Shown in pieces: positions 10,028 to 22,067 of a stretch of 64,000 bases of DNA. The DNA comes from an uncultured Rhodobacteraceae bacterium (lineage in GTDB: Bacteria; Pseudomonadota; Alphaproteobacteria; Rhodobacterales; Rhodobacteraceae). A program made the position numbers and the translations under genes. The stretch spans positions 41,751 to 105,750 of the forward strand of contig CATOSU010000007.1 in the NCBI GenBank assembly GCA_951812615.1. The letters run 5' to 3'. Below the pieces are notes generated by a model. It saw nothing but the letters and a program-made list of their open reading frames with translations. It made no database searches and was not told the DNA's origin. The stretch's first letter is position 1. The number at the start of each line of letters is the position of its first letter.

Positions 10028-10807
10028 TCAGAGGTCCAGTTCGATCCAGACCGGCACGTGGTCCGAGGGTTTTTCCCGGCCCCGGACATGGGCATCGATC
10101 CGGCAGTCGCGCAACAGATCCGCGCATTGCGGAGTCAGCAGGAAATGATCGATGCGGATCCCGTCGCCGCGTTCCCATGATCCGGCCTGATAATCCCAGA
10201 AACTGTAATGCCCGCCGCCGCGGGTGCGGGCCCGGAACGCCTCGGTAAAGCCCAGATTGACGATCCGCCGCCATGCCGCGCGGGCCTCGGGCCGAAACAG
10301 CGCGTCCTCGGTCCAGGCTTCGGGGCGATGGGCGTCCTCGGCCTGCGGGATGATGTTGTAATCGCCCGCCATCAGCGCAACCTCTTCGCTGGCCAGCAGT
10401 TCGGCCGCCCGCGCTTCCAGACGTTTCATCCAGGCCAGCTTGTAATCGAATTTCGGCCCCGGCGCCGGATTGCCGTTGGGCAGGTACAGTCCGCAGACGC
10501 GCAGCGCCTGCCGGCCCACCACCGTCGCCTCTATCCAGCGGGCCTGTTCGTCGCTGTCGTCACCCGGCAACCCGCGCGACACATCCTCCAGCGGCAGTTT
10601 CGACAGGATCGCCACGCCGTTGAAACCCTTTTGCCCGTGGGTTTCCACGTTATAGCCCCGGTCCTCGAACAATTCCCTCGGGAAGTTTTCGTCGACGGAT
10701 TTGATCTCCTGCAGCAGCGCGACATCCGGCTGCGCCTCGTCAAGCCAGTCGGGCAGGGCGGCGATCCGGGCCTTGATCCCGTTGATGTTGAATGTGGCGA
10801 TCTTCAT
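10028..10807 (-). CDS. xthA: exodeoxyribonuclease III
   Basis: MKIATFNINGIKAR...LLQEIK...SDHVPVWIELDL are canonical ExoIII/APE motifs. Confidence 0.9.
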   Translation of the reverse strand: MKIATFNINGIKARIAALPDWLDEAQPDVALLQEIKSVDENFPRELFEDRGYNVETHGQKGFNGVAILSKLPLEDVSRGLPGDDSDEQARWIEATVVGRQALRVCGLYLPNGNPAPGPKFDYKLAWMKRLEARAAELLASEEVALMAGDYNIIPQAEDAHRPEAWTEDALFRPEARAAWRRIVNLGFTEAFRARTRGGGHYSFWDYQAGSWERGDGIRIDHFLLTPQCADLLRDCRIDAHVRGREKPSDHVPVWIELDL

Positions 10808-10969
10808 CGGCCCCTCCGCTGGCTGTCAGTGATCTATCGCCGATCGTGCGAAAGGGGGCAAGCGGGCCATTTGCCGACGCGGTCGGCGTGATGCGTTCGT
10901 GCAAAACGTGATGGTGATTCGCGTCCGCTCTGGGCGCGATTCCGCATGACATCTGCCCGATTTCGTGCC

Positions 10970-11054
10970 TGTGGATAAGTTTCTTTTCGCGGATCAGCGT
11001 CAGAGCCTTTTGATTTTTCGCCAATTTCTTGGAGCGCGCACCTCATGTGGATAA
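10970..11054 (+). promoter_or_regulatory. two perfect DnaA-box 9-mers (TGTGGATAA, the complement of TTATCCACA) in direct orientation
   Basis: Exact 9-mers at 10970-10978 and 11046-11054. They sit in a locally AT-richer divergent intergenic region between xthA and the repeat-peptide gene. Confidence 0.5.
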
Positions 11055-11156
11055 ACGGGGCCGCAACACACCTTTAAGGAGAGAAAGCATTTGACGAACC
11101 CGTTTAACGTGCAATCGTGAAGGGGCGTTCAACCACTCAAGCAGGAGAAAAGACCA

Positions 11157-11644
11157 TGACCGCACTTCGCAAAGTATACGAAACCACCACCCCCAAGACC
11201 ACGGCTGCGGATGAGGCCAGCCTCTTCGACGGAGACGGCACATTCCTGTTCTCCTCCGGTTCTGCCCCCAGCTGCAGCGCCGACGCGCTGAGCGGCGAAC
11301 AGACGGAAATGTTCTCCTCCGGGTCGGCTCCGACACTGCGCAGCACCGCGCTGAGCGGCGAAGGCGTGGAAATGTTCTCTTCGGGCTCCGCGCCTGTTGC
11401 GTCCTCCGCGGCCCTGACCGGTGAACTGGTTCAGATGTTCTCCTCCGGCTCCGCCCCGGCGGCCAGCGCGGACACGATGGCCGGTGACGGCATCCAGATG
11501 TTCTCGTCCGGCTCGGCCCCGACGGCTGCGGCCGACACCACAACCGGAGAAGGCACCCAGATGTTCTCGTCGGGTTCTGCCCCCGTGGCCACCAGCGATG
11601 CGGTGCGCGGCGACGGAACCGAGATGTTTTCGTCGGGCAGCTGA
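11157..11644 (+). CDS. tandem-repeat peptide/protein (162 aa) with 7 x (M/L)FSSGS(AP); hypothetical, candidate multi-cassette precursor
   Basis: ORF 11117..11644, trimmed to the ATG at 11157 with an AGGAGA Shine-Dalgarno sequence 7 nt upstream. It has a 21-aa period, and differences within the conserved blocks between repeat copies are synonymous. Confidence 0.7.
11246..11644 (+). repeat. 63-nt tandem repeat, about 6.3 copies, in-frame coding
   Basis: Motif starts fall at 11246, 11309, 11372, 11435, 11498, 11561 and 11624, exactly 63 nt apart. Confidence 0.95.
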
Positions 11645-11707
11645 TCTGACCGCGAAATGAGTGTTGGACACGGGGCGTTCAGGGAACGCCGTTCGAAGGA
11701 GAAATCA

Positions 11708-12784
11708 ATGTCGAATGTCGTACATCTGAATGTTCCGTCCCAACGTCAGAGCCAGCAGTCGCGCCACGGCGCGCTGCTTGGCGTCTTTGGCCGCCAGCGC
11801 CGATTTGGCGACGATGTGTTCTGGCTGAAGGAAAACGCTGAACTGCTGAACATACTGGAATGCACGCGGGCCGGGGTCGATCCCGCCGCCCTGTCCGTGC
11901 ACGAACCGTTTTATGCCGAAGTTGAGAAGCGGCTGGGGTTTTTCCCCCAGTATTACCGCTTCCTGTTGTCGATCTGCCTGGACCTCGAGGCGCTCGGTCT
12001 GCCGGGGTCCAAGGCCGAAGCACTGATACACTGGGCCGCGCGCGAGGGGCTGGCGGATGCCGAACTGTCGGACCTGCAACGCGCCGAGGCGCGCCGGCTG
12101 ATGATGCGCCGCGGGGTCGATCCGCTGCCCGAAGACACCGGCCTGACCGACCGGCTGCACGCCTTCATCGACCGCAGCGATACTTTCGCCTTGCCGAACA
12201 AGAAGGCGGCATATGAGTTGACCCATATCGTCTTTTATCTCAGCGAATACGGGCGCTGTGACCCGGGCCTGTCGGCCCGCGCGGTTACCAGCCTCGAATT
12301 TGCCGGGATCCTTGCCTATCTCGATCAGAATTCAGACCTGTTGTCCGAAATCTGCGTCGCCCTGCGCTATGCCGGACACATACCCTCGCAGATCTGGGAA
12401 GACTGGCTGGAACGCGAAACGCACCGGTTTTCAATGATACAGGGGCCGCAAACGACGCTTCAGGACGATTATCACGACTATTTTGTCTGCAACTGGCTGA
12501 TGGCAATGTCGGGCCGGGATGCCTTTGTCAAACCGGTGGCCGACGAACCGGCCACCTTTCACCAATCAGAGCCATGGGACGGGCCGCTGCGCCGGATGTC
12601 GGAATGCATGTTCGAAATGGCCGATGACCGGTCAGATGACTGGCACCGGATGCGCCCGGTGATCGAAGACACGCTGAGCGACACCGGTCACGACATCCTG
12701 TGCGAAGCTCTGCAAAGCACTGACAAGTTCGAAGCGTTCTTCGCCGGCTTCGCCCGGACCGGCCTGCGGGGAGTGGCGCTGTGA
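11708..12784 (+). CDS. hypothetical protein (358 aa), predicted all-helical, family not recognised
   Basis: ORF 11657..12784, trimmed to the ATG at 11708 with an AAGGAGA Shine-Dalgarno sequence 5 nt upstream. It has no signal peptide or TM segment and contains several E/D-xx-H motifs (YELTHIVFY, DDYHDYF, EALIHW). Its stop overlaps the next start (GTGA). Confidence 0.8.
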   Translation: MSNVVHLNVPSQRQSQQSRHGALLGVFGRQRRFGDDVFWLKENAELLNILECTRAGVDPAALSVHEPFYAEVEKRLGFFPQYYRFLLSICLDLEALGLPGSKAEALIHWAAREGLADAELSDLQRAEARRLMMRRGVDPLPEDTGLTDRLHAFIDRSDTFALPNKKAAYELTHIVFYLSEYGRCDPGLSARAVTSLEFAGILAYLDQNSDLLSEICVALRYAGHIPSQIWEDWLERETHRFSMIQGPQTTLQDDYHDYFVCNWLMAMSGRDAFVKPVADEPATFHQSEPWDGPLRRMSECMFEMADDRSDDWHRMRPVIEDTLSDTGHDILCEALQSTDKFEAFFAGFARTGLRGVAL

Positions 12785-13683
12785 CCGTGCTGGCGGCGCG
12801 GGCGGCCCCGGCCGGGGTGATTTTCGCTTCGGGTCTGGTGGTGCTTTATACCGGGCTGATTTCCGGGGCTGACGCGATCACCAAGCTGATCGCCGGCGGC
12901 TATGCCGCTCCGCAGCTTTACGCCTTTTCGGGGCTGATCGTGATCGGGCTGAGCCTGTTGGCCGACCGCCACGCCACCGGGCGGCGGGGCCTGCGCACCG
13001 GCTGCCCGCGGGCGATGGCGTTGCGGTCGGCGGCGACCGTCGCGGCGGCGGTGTCGTTTTTTCACGCCTTCCGGCTGCTGCCCTTTGCCGAGGTGTTTCT
13101 GTTCATCGGCCTGATGCCGATTCTGGCTGGGCTGATGTCCGGCCCGATCCTGCGTGAATATGTGCGCCCGGCGGCCTGGCTGGCGCTGATCGCCGGTTTT
13201 GCCGGCGTCGCCTGCCTGTTTCCGGCCGGGCCGGGCTCGGTCTCCGCTGGTCACTTGTGGGCGTTGGCGGTGGCGGTGTCGGGGACCTTCTCGATGGTGC
13301 TGGCGCGCTTTATCGGGCGGCATGAAAACAACGCGCTGGCGCAGGTGTTCTACCCCAACCTCGCACTGTTTGTGACCATGTCGGCGGCGCTGCCTTTCGT
13401 GTGGAGGCCGATGCCGGTGACGGATCTGGTCTGGGTCGCAGCCTATGCTGCACTGCTTTTCGCCGCGCGCTGGGTGCTGGTCGAGGCGCTGCGCCGGCTG
13501 GCGGCCTATACGGTCACACCACTGATGAACCTGCAATTTGTCTGGATGGCGGTGATCGGCGCCGTGGGCTTCGGCGAGTTTCCCGGCGCCGGCACCTATC
13601 TGGGCGTGGCGGTTATCATGGCCTCGGGCGCCTATCTGGTCTGGGAGCAGTTTTCACCGGGAAAGCCTGCGGCTGTGACGTAG
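12781..13683 (+). CDS. DMT superfamily (EamA-like) transporter
   Basis: About 10 hydrophobic segments and a two-EamA-repeat architecture. The GTG start overlaps the upstream stop. Confidence 0.85.
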   Translation: MTVLAARAAPAGVIFASGLVVLYTGLISGADAITKLIAGGYAAPQLYAFSGLIVIGLSLLADRHATGRRGLRTGCPRAMALRSAATVAAAVSFFHAFRLLPFAEVFLFIGLMPILAGLMSGPILREYVRPAAWLALIAGFAGVACLFPAGPGSVSAGHLWALAVAVSGTFSMVLARFIGRHENNALAQVFYPNLALFVTMSAALPFVWRPMPVTDLVWVAAYAALLFAARWVLVEALRRLAAYTVTPLMNLQFVWMAVIGAVGFGEFPGAGTYLGVAVIMASGAYLVWEQFSPGKPAAVT

Positions 13684-21417: not shown

Positions 21418-22067
21418 GCGACGGCGACGAGACCGAGAGCCTTTTCGAAGCGCCCCCCATGGCCGAGCAGGAACGCATGGTCGAAGCCGTGCTGTTTGCC
21501 AGCGCGGAACCGGTCAGTGTGCGCGATCTGGAGGCGCGGATGCCGCATGGCTGCGACCCGACCGAGGCGTTGCAGCACCTGCGCCGGCGCTATGAAGGCC
21601 GGGGCGTTCAGGTGGTGCGGATCGGCGACGCCTGGGCGATCCGCACGGCGCCGGATCTCGGGTTCCTGATGCAGAAGGAAACCGTCGAAACCCGCAAGCT
21701 GAGCCGGGCGGCCATCGAAACGCTGGCGATCATCGCCTATCACCAGCCGGCGACGCGGGCCGAGATCGAGGAGATCCGCGGCGTATCGGTGTCGCGCGGC
21801 ACGATCGACCAGTTGCTGGAAATGGAGTGGATCCGGTTCGGGCGGCGCAAGATGACACCGGGGCGGCCGGTGACCTTTGTGGTGACGCCGGAGTTTCTGG
21901 ATCATTTCGGGCTGGAAACCGCGCGCGATCTGCCGGGGCTGAAGGAACTGCGCGCCGCCGGCCTGCTGGAAAACCGGCCGTTGCCGGGTGCGGAACCCGC
22001 TGGCGGCGACGAAGACGGCGAGGCCGACGGTCAGCCCGAGCTGTTCGAGGAGCCCGACGACGCGTAA
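21414..22067 (+). CDS. scpB: segregation and condensation protein B
   Basis: ATGA overlap with scpA. Winged-helix ScpB motifs (VEAVLFAS..PVS, ETLAIIAYHQP.TRAEIEEIRGV). Confidence 0.9.
   Translation: MSDGDETESLFEAPPMAEQERMVEAVLFASAEPVSVRDLEARMPHGCDPTEALQHLRRRYEGRGVQVVRIGDAWAIRTAPDLGFLMQKETVETRKLSRAAIETLAIIAYHQPATRAEIEEIRGVSVSRGTIDQLLEMEWIRFGRRKMTPGRPVTFVVTPEFLDHFGLETARDLPGLKELRAAGLLENRPLPGAEPAGGDEDGEADGQPELFEEPDDA

Follow-up and report, generated by a model that had tools for sequence, protein, structure and literature searches.

Background

Graspetides of the plesiocin and thuringinin type are made from multi-core precursors with repeated conserved cores, and the yeast alpha-factor MF-alpha1 is a polyprotein pheromone precursor. 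Few marine heterotrophs are more abundant or better studied than bacteria of the Roseobacter group. Here we describe a small gene in a 64,000-nt stretch of DNA from an uncultured Rhodobacteraceae bacterium (GenBank assembly GCA_951812615.1, contig CATOSU010000007.1, positions 41,751 to 105,750 of the forward strand; hereafter the window). It encodes a peptide with a leader and a tandem array of conserved blocks, and lies directly upstream of a gene for a protein of Pfam family DUF6902. The pair is read tentatively as a precursor resembling those of ribosomally synthesised peptides that are post-translationally modified (RiPPs), together with the enzyme that would modify it. In its working such a pair would be most like the repeated-core precursors, multi-core or polyprotein; the defining enzymes of each such family were not found.

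Like the precursors of those graspetides, the peptide has a leader and several copies of one short core, and one adjacent enzyme would be expected to serve all copies. Unlike theirs, its locus has no ATP-grasp ligase (no ATP-grasp domain was detected in the neighbouring genes by Pfam scan), its core lacks the ester-forming pattern of Thr/Ser plus Glu/Asp, and its partner is a DUF6902 protein. With cyanobactin precursors of the PatE type it shares a small open reading frame (ORF) in which conserved and variable segments alternate in tandem. It differs from them in that the conserved segment would act as the functional unit, in that no gene for a PatA/PatG-type protease, a YcaO heterocyclase or a prenyltransferase was found among the neighbours by Pfam scan, and in its location in the syntenic core chromosome, not in a mobile gene cluster.

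A protein of family DUF6895 is called a lasso-peptide epimerase in the title of a paper (Shi et al., ACS Catal 2026, doi 10.1021/acscatal.5c08590) that stands in the reference lists of PMC13352647 and PMC13453073. As far as that title tells, the two systems are alike in that the DUF6902 protein matches the DUF6895 profile and is also encoded beside a small ribosomal peptide. They differ in that the best Pfam match here is DUF6902, that no gene for a lasso cyclase, a leader peptidase or a RiPP recognition element (RRE) was found among the neighbours in the window and at related loci, and that the proposed substrate is a linear tandem-repeat peptide.

Fungal Kex2-processed repeat proteins and precursors of the ustiloxin type are polyprotein peptide precursors as well (PMC7329392). 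Tandem identical short peptides with spacers, a variable copy number and a lineage-specific peptide are common to alpha-factor, to these fungal precursors and to the roseobacter peptide. The former are eukaryotic, use the secretory pathway and carry dibasic Kex2 sites, whereas in the roseobacter peptide neither a signal peptide nor a protease site can be recognised. Bacillus Phr precursors are Sec-exported, usually single-copy, and partnered by a tetratricopeptide repeat (TPR) receptor. As in these and other RRNPP systems, the active unit would be a pentapeptide-sized, C-terminal, lineage-specific motif; unlike the RRNPP receptors, to which its similarity is non-significant (NprR ranked 39th, E 1.6, in a Foldseek search), the partner here belongs to DUF6902. 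A RiPP-like multi-core precursor paired with DUF6902 would involve a new partner family. Nothing can be claimed for it beyond membership of DUF6902 and kinship with DUF6895.

Identification of a repeat-peptide gene

The gene and its two parts were located in the window as follows.

11156..11644, + strand: repeat-peptide gene, 162 aa plus stop codon, with orthologues upstream of DUF6902 at 77 of 77 testable loci
11156..11230, + strand: leader, residues 1-25 (MTALRKVYETTTPKTTAADEASLFD), from a leader profile over 71 peptides
11231..11641, + strand: tandem array in which G-(D/E)-x-(T/V/I)-x-(M/L)-F-S-S-G-S occurs seven times, with six spacers of A-P plus an octamer, from repeat analysis and a family-wide profile

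The [ML]FSSGS blocks start at nt 11246, 11309, 11372, 11435, 11498, 11561 and 11624, i.e. at residues 31, 52, 73, 94, 115, 136 and 157, with a period of exactly 21 aa (63 nt), bearing out the seven evenly spaced repeats reported in a preliminary description of this DNA; the stop codon is TGA at 11642-11644. That description had put the ATG at 11157, one base too far: the true ATG is 11156-11158, and the frame from 11157 gives a wrong translation. Translation from 11156 yielded 162 aa identical to the ~30-aa N-terminal region and array that it had transcribed. The ribosome-binding site AGGAGA is present 7 nt before the ATG (11143-11148), where it had been placed, and the reported lack of a signal peptide agreed with the absence of an N-terminal hydrophobic stretch, as read from the sequence. 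The peptide is acidic (net charge about -13), and Ser, Ala, Thr and Gly account for 58% of its residues.

In the invariant columns of the array (G, F, S, S, G, S, A and P) only third codon positions differ, as had been claimed of the conserved blocks. The codons used there are TCC, TCG and TCT for Ser, with AGC in the last copy; GGA, GGC, GGG and GGT for Gly; GCC, GCG and GCT for Ala; CCC, CCG and CCT for Pro; and TTC for Phe, with TTT in the last copy. Nucleotide identity between units is only 54-71%, with a mean of 62%, which explains why Tandem Repeats Finder saw just 2.4 copies. For the window gene, this synonymous-only variation supports the earlier view that the repeat is kept by selection on the peptide and not by recent duplication.

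A relaxed form of the block ([ML][FY] plus the variant classes of relatives at the other four positions) occurred 7 times in the peptide frame and only 2 times in all other frames of the 64-kb window. The GC content at third codon positions (GC3) was 0.79 in the peptide frame, 0.75-0.83 in neighbouring genes and 0.55-0.60 in overlapping rival ORFs. The start codon, ribosome-binding site and 5' region aligned across 20 loci of other genomes. The peptide ORF is a real gene under peptide-level selection, and the best explanation, predicted from its sequence, is most likely that it is translated as a precursor.

That the array is a non-coding tandem DNA repeat, or that the real gene lies on the opposite strand, is scarcely credible. 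Long minus-strand ORFs do overlap the peptide gene, and a collection of about 15 billion proteins lacks both the 162-aa product and the 175-aa version with a GTG start, although it holds the DUF6902 (P0001) and EamA (P0382) proteins of the same contig (476,679 nt). Against such a view, the variation in conserved columns is confined to third positions in the peptide frame alone, and the rival frames have the lower GC3; the motif, leader, start and ribosome-binding site are kept across genera while the repeat-unit DNA is only about 60% identical; and certain homologues are annotated (e.g. MCE8524352.1 and WP_299552768.1). Because the product is absent from that collection and both operon partners are present, the peptide gene appears to have been missed by annotation in the source genome. 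Searches retrieved 40 homologues of the peptide and 1495 of DUF6902, a difference suggesting that this peptide family is systematically overlooked in gene calling.

No curated family in Pfam, NCBIfam or PADLOC covers the motif, in line with the preliminary description, which did not recognise it; scans of the peptide gave zero matches even at E up to 10. The homologue WP_299552768.1 (P0154) is labelled by NCBI as a 'DUF6749 domain-containing protein', and neither it nor the window peptide matched DUF6749 in the copies of Pfam and NCBIfam used, again at E up to 10. A literature search found no mention of the motif and its variants, of DUF6902 or DUF6749, or of their Pfam accessions, and a broader search on RiPPs and Rhodobacteraceae returned nothing relevant.

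Pairing of the repeat peptide with DUF6902

Two genes follow that of the peptide on the same strand.

11708..12784, + strand: DUF6902 protein, 358 aa, the proposed peptide-modifying enzyme (Pfam, homologue lengths, AlphaFold2)
12781..13683, + strand: EamA/DMT-family permease, 300 aa (PF00892, E 3.9e-11)

The gap between the peptide stop codon and the DUF6902 ATG (11708) is 63 nt and holds a ribosome-binding site, AAGGAG (11696-11701); the GTG start of EamA overlaps the DUF6902 stop codon (GTGA). The peptide, DUF6902 and EamA genes form a predicted tight operon, headed by the peptide gene.

A scan of one genome per species gave at least 568 loci, in at least 568 species-level genomes, with a DUF6902 relative, and the best 80 loci were compared. 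These are labelled Rhodobacteraceae, Paracoccaceae or less specifically, except that one metagenome-assembled genome (MAG) is assigned to Granulosicoccus and another bears the label Alphaproteobacteria. A locus was taken as testable if DUF6902 was preceded by at least 250 nt of sequence (77); the other three end at contig ends. At 76 testable loci the ORF directly upstream of DUF6902 holds at least three copies of the motif, and at the 77th (L006) this place is held by a leader-plus-repeat peptide with the variant FCSAS. The peptide-DUF6902 pair is obligatory across the testable loci examined. A more divergent Rhodobacteraceae-type locus has an upstream peptide with four copies of FISGS. The generic layout of a RiPP locus, an ORF with leader and core(s) in operon-like arrangement beside a gene for a candidate enzyme, was found at all 77 loci. 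The general idea of a multi-core ribosomal precursor, put forward in the preliminary description, is supported by this pairing together with the homology of DUF6902 to DUF6895.

The leader consensus, derived from 71 peptides, starts with M-x-A-(L/Q)-x-K; taken as about 25 aa it ends with S-L-(F/H)-D, and taken as about 30 aa with S-L-(F/H)-D-G-(D/E)-(G/A)-T-x-(M/L). After the leader, F-(S/T)-(S/T/C)-(G/S/A)-(S/L/A/M...) occurs in 3-15 copies. Internal copies usually have G-(D/E)-x-(T/V)-x-(M/L) in front of them, and A-P with a variable stretch behind. Among 330 units of 21 residues, Gly stands six residues before the Phe in 100%, the Phe itself is kept in 96% (Tyr in 3%), and the two residues after it are Ser, Thr or Cys in about 99%.

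The conserved pentamer as the functional unit

By comparison across the family, the conserved pentamer block (FSSGS in the window), and not the variable octamer, is the selected unit and the predicted functional one. In 69 of the 75 peptides scored the last residue of the pentamer is the end of the peptide, and five others have a 5-residue tail. The distance from pentamer to pentamer is usually 21 or 20 residues and in 49 cases 8 residues, where the variable part is just 3 residues (e.g. FTSGS-TAL-FTSGS and FTSGL-VQM-FTSGL); over the family, spacers range from 3 to about 16 residues. Seohaeicola nanhaiensis (L038) and a Pseudooceanicola MAG (L039) have peptides made mostly of 8-residue units, which are frequent in Shimia peptides as well. 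The tabulation of copy number and octamers among relatives that had been proposed earlier thus gave 3-15 copies, with spacers that are variable or duplicated: middle spacers are identical, as recent duplicates, in many genomes (e.g. L007 and L042), copy number differs between close relatives (e.g. 6 and 9 in L008 and L032), and the spacers are of low complexity, made of Ala, Ser, Thr, Gly and Asp.

The pentamer is uniform in a genome and clade-specific between genomes. Its variants are FSSGS, FTSGS, FTSGL, FTCGL, FTSSM/L/I, FTTSL, FTTSA/G, FSSGA, FSSCS, FPSGS, FISGS and FCSAS. Two loci, L010 and L011, encode DUF6902 proteins 96% identical and peptides whose spacers match unit by unit; every copy is FSSGS (TCN) in one of them and FTSGS (ACN) in the other. 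The final Ser of the last copy is AGC in all seven peptides compared, from several lineages, so the units are positional orthologues and were not homogenised by gene conversion. From these sequences, all copies in L010 and L011 are evidently selected to change together. Such joint switching in sister genomes bears unusually clear witness to selection on a product made in many copies, whatever its function.

Mixed block types were seen in one array at L026, at L074 and in P0128 (Ruegeria pomeroyi), either FTSGS with FTTSA, or FSSGS at the ends with FSTSC in the middle. These arrays are an exception to the uniformity within genomes and may give two products from one precursor.

The preliminary description had compared the ORF first with PatE-type precursors. 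On that view the products would come from the octamers, while FSSGSAP and G(D/E)xxx would serve the processing enzymes as recognition sequences. Conserved sequence does flank each octamer on both sides, a conserved block ends the array, and the octamers differ from one another within the window peptide. A core of just 3 residues at 49 spacings, runs of identical spacers in many genomes and a low-complexity composition do not suit product cores, and the supposed recognition blocks switch between clades, all copies at once. Subtilisin-like PatA/PatG, YcaO and prenyltransferase genes are also missing among the neighbours. A PatE-like layout is therefore very unlikely, and its opposite, also mentioned there, many copies of one conserved core, is favoured by the peptide ends at the pentamer and the joint change of the copies.

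It also appears quite unlikely that the peptide folds into a beta-solenoid or a fibrous protein with a coil of 21 residues and Ser/Thr ladders, to which DUF6902 would be unrelated or an assembly factor. A ladder position would explain the joint Ser-to-Thr switch of all copies, AlphaFold2 predicted periodic beta strands for the peptide with a predicted template modelling score (pTM) of 0.48, and its Foldseek neighbours were left-handed beta-helices, bactofilin, an ice-binding protein and FapC. The mean predicted local distance difference test score (pLDDT) of this model was 57.9, however (42.7-57.9 over five models), and all Foldseek matches were non-significant, with E at least 0.59 and a query template modelling score (TM) of at most 0.30; the structure prediction thus gave no significant match to a structural repeat family. 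Single proteins combine units of 8, 20 and 21 residues, and L038 and L039 have mostly 8, which argues against a common solenoid register. Capping sequences are lacking, and the ORF stops at the motif.

Properties of the DUF6902 protein

The partner protein matched PF21843 (DUF6902) over profile positions 1-351 of 351, with E 7.6e-166 and 551.7 bits against a cut-off of 27. It also matched PF21836 (DUF6895) over about 220 residues (profile positions 20-257 of 289), with E 4.5e-23 and 82.5 bits against a cut-off of 23.8. The DUF6895 match is far weaker than that to DUF6902, and on these profile matches DUF6902 is a putative sister family of DUF6895. The start of the gene was confirmed by homologues of 358 aa. 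The family is narrow: an exhaustive search with a hidden Markov model (HMM) of 1.84 billion representative proteins returned 206 at E up to 0.001.

AlphaFold2 modelled the protein as all-alpha, with about 20 helices (pLDDT 89, pTM 0.88). A Foldseek search of this model against the PDB gave nothing significant (best E 0.41, TM at most 0.32), the match of highest probability, likewise non-significant, being transcobalamin (TM 0.31); searches of PDB sequences with the single sequence and with a profile found no relatives. Nine polar residues are near-invariant down to 20-30% identity (K41, E45, R84, S121, D122, D210, E214, Y255 and H256), and H173 (window numbering) is kept in most aligned DUF6902 proteins. 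This set of invariant polar residues fits a candidate active site. By analogy with the enzyme named in the one paper title cited above, which is the sole basis, we infer that the DUF6902/DUF6895 superfamily acts on ribosomal peptides.

Distant DUF6902 relatives

DUF6902 proteins of 22-43% identity were found in Robiginitomaculum genomes and metagenome contigs (L081-L086, L091 and L092), and a metagenome scan with a narrow alignment returned 2 loci. Here DUF6902 is the last gene of a three-gene module, in which it follows genes for a protein of ~540 aa and a small protein of 86-94 aa. The ~540-aa protein had no Pfam match; by eye it has a winged-helix-like N-terminus and then a hydrophobic segment. 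The small proteins have a signal peptide and the motifs (L/F)Y(R/Q/N)GDF and (L/M)YxGxG. The module is portable: because its flanking genes differ between contigs, a small ORF directly upstream of DUF6902 recurs independently of Rhodobacteraceae synteny. Homology of these small ORFs to the repeat units, suggested by eye from a pattern L-Y/F-x-G-x-G, was rejected, as an HMM of 438 units scored them like shuffled sequence.

At Donghicola-type loci (L087 and L088, from a Donghicola sp. and a relative) a syntenic DUF6902 gene occurs where both the peptide ORF and EamA are missing. Its product diverges strongly, scoring 102 bits against the family profile, and most of the residues invariant in the family are replaced in it. 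These loci were considered as a natural knockout or decay, which was rejected since the ratio of nonsynonymous to synonymous substitution rates (dN/dS) of DUF6902 there is 0.08, i.e. purifying selection, against 0.06-0.09 for normal DUF6902. The case looks like one of changed function rather than decay, and neither confirms nor refutes a co-dependence of peptide and partner.

Proposed function of the pair

The best reading of the locus, to which we give a little less than an even chance, takes the peptide for a RiPP-like precursor with multiple core copies, which DUF6902 would modify. The precursor would consist of the leader and seven copies of the core G-(D/E)-x-(T/V)-x-(M/L)-F-S-S-G-S, separated by spacers that evolve fast and are probably disordered. 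DUF6902 would recognise and chemically modify each core copy. Its chemistry might be epimerisation, by homology to the DUF6895 lasso-peptide epimerase, or alternatively might target the side chains of the two residues that follow Phe, which are almost exclusively Ser, Thr or Cys, a hint of side-chain chemistry. The array would give many equivalents of one modified motif per translation, and this motif would either stay in the polypeptide or leave it within short peptides that have ...MFSSGS at their end. The co-transcribed EamA permease might export the product in most genera. Catalysis on the peptide by DUF6902, the type of modification, cleavage and export are all inferred from the gene content and sequences, cleavage being conjectural because no protease gene is present.

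Several points weigh against this reading. The support comes from sequence and models, and the function of DUF6895 is known here by a paper title only. With no PDB relative by sequence or fold, DUF6902 might be a binding protein instead of a catalyst. No protease, RRE domain or other RiPP hallmark gene was found nearby. Because the flanks are syntenic, the adjacency of peptide and DUF6902 within Rhodobacteraceae partly reflects shared ancestry; the distant small ORFs carry signal peptides, are non-repetitive and are no more unit-like than shuffled sequence, and the Donghicola-type loci keep DUF6902 without peptide ORF or EamA. Export would not be universal, since EamA, directly downstream of DUF6902 at 71 of 80 loci, is missing in the other 9 and in L089. 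The AlphaFold2 model of the peptide is weakly beta-rich.

The most probable competitor, itself unlikely, is an unprocessed, disordered repeat protein, whose MFSSGS blocks would be multivalent linear motifs that bind DUF6902 or another partner and stay unmodified. Such a protein might regulate, act as a scaffold or serve as a sponge, and DnaA might control its expression. It is favoured by the all-alpha fold of DUF6902, whose only structural neighbours, all non-significant, are helical-repeat peptide binders (ARM, HEAT and TPR) and transcobalamin, and by the lack of a protease or tailoring gene nearby. The variable copy number and spacer length suit multivalency, EamA is dispensable in some clades, and the conserved DnaA boxes upstream of the gene (described below) suggest an intracellular, cell-cycle-linked role. 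It is opposed by the homology of DUF6902 to a family with an enzyme published under the title cited, by the many invariant polar residues of DUF6902, by the restriction to Ser, Thr and Cys after Phe, which points to chemistry beyond binding, and by the permease gene co-transcribed in most genera.

If the RiPP-like reading is true, DUF6902 gains a substrate and an assay, the sole known DUF6895-type chemistry, as the paper title gives it, extends beyond lasso peptides, and a new, easily minable precursor signature follows, in which a leader precedes n copies of G(D/E)xxx(M/L)F(S/T/C)(S/T/C)xx and the stop codon comes directly behind the final one.

Gene neighbourhood

By Pfam scans, the window genes upstream of the operon encode MoxR (- strand), DksA, a FAD monooxygenase, a short-chain dehydrogenase/reductase and then exonuclease III (- strand), the last being divergent to the peptide gene. 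Those downstream of EamA encode an iron-sulfur (Fe-S) assembly protein (- strand), a dGTPase and arginyl-tRNA synthetase (ArgRS). The flanking genes are housekeeping genes, and the wider neighbourhood from MoxR to NagZ is syntenic across related genomes, which places the locus in the core chromosome. No plasmid copies of DUF6902 were found.

Elements upstream of and between the genes

Four non-coding elements were recorded around the peptide gene.

10970..10978, + strand: DnaA-box 9-mer TGTGGATAA (box 1), perfect match, followed by a T-rich tract
11046..11054, + strand: DnaA-box 9-mer TGTGGATAA (box 2), perfect match, about 100 nt upstream of the peptide ATG
11055..11155, + strand: conserved 5' region with GTGCAA.CGT, GGGGCGTTCA (11122-11131) and AGGAGA (11143-11148), from a 20-locus alignment
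11674..11690, + strand: small stem-loop GGCGTTC-AGG-GAACGCC between the peptide and DUF6902 genes, from fold prediction

Both boxes fall between xthA and the peptide gene, 76 nt from each other, and no further perfect copy of the DnaA box occurs in the 64-kb window (TGTGGATAA is TTATCCACA in reverse complement). A perfect box occurs in the same upstream region at 46 of 72 related loci, usually as a pair at the 76-nt spacing, and only 1 was found elsewhere in 771 kb of flanking sequence. Box 2 keeps a conserved distance from the start of the peptide gene, whereas on the xthA side both length and sequence differ between loci. A replication origin as the reason for the boxes was rejected, since the cumulative GC skew rises steadily with no turning point in the window. 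As judged from its sequence and position, the pair may be a DnaA-regulated promoter or a DnaA-titrating site like DARS (DnaA-reactivating sequences). A fuller proposal would join these elements to the RiPP-like reading: a new class of ribosomal peptide product in the core genome of marine Roseobacter bacteria, with 3-15 copies of a lineage-specific, pentapeptide-sized unit that DUF6902, as a new enzyme family, would modify, released as a small signal, cofactor or metabolite, and with its expression wired through the box pair to DnaA and thereby to the state of replication or growth. Taken as a whole, this is rather improbable.

No RNA family was detected by Rfam in 10700-11800. A fold of the aligned hairpin sequences gave 6 pairs, one with a compensatory change. 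Its role as a terminator or attenuator was rejected, as it has no T tract, its stability in a 77-nt context does not exceed that of shuffled sequence, and a single pair is compensatory. The 10-mer GGGGCGTTCA occurs at 11122-11131, 11672-11681 and 21601-21610 (+ strand), i.e. three copies in the window against 0.26 expected. Two of these copies precede the ATG codons of the peptide and of DUF6902 by ~30-40 nt, and the one before DUF6902 folds into the hairpin. A motif GGGGCGTTC about 40 nt before the DUF6902 ATG is present at 32 of 70 loci, and the GGGGCGTTCA copy on the peptide side is kept in fewer.

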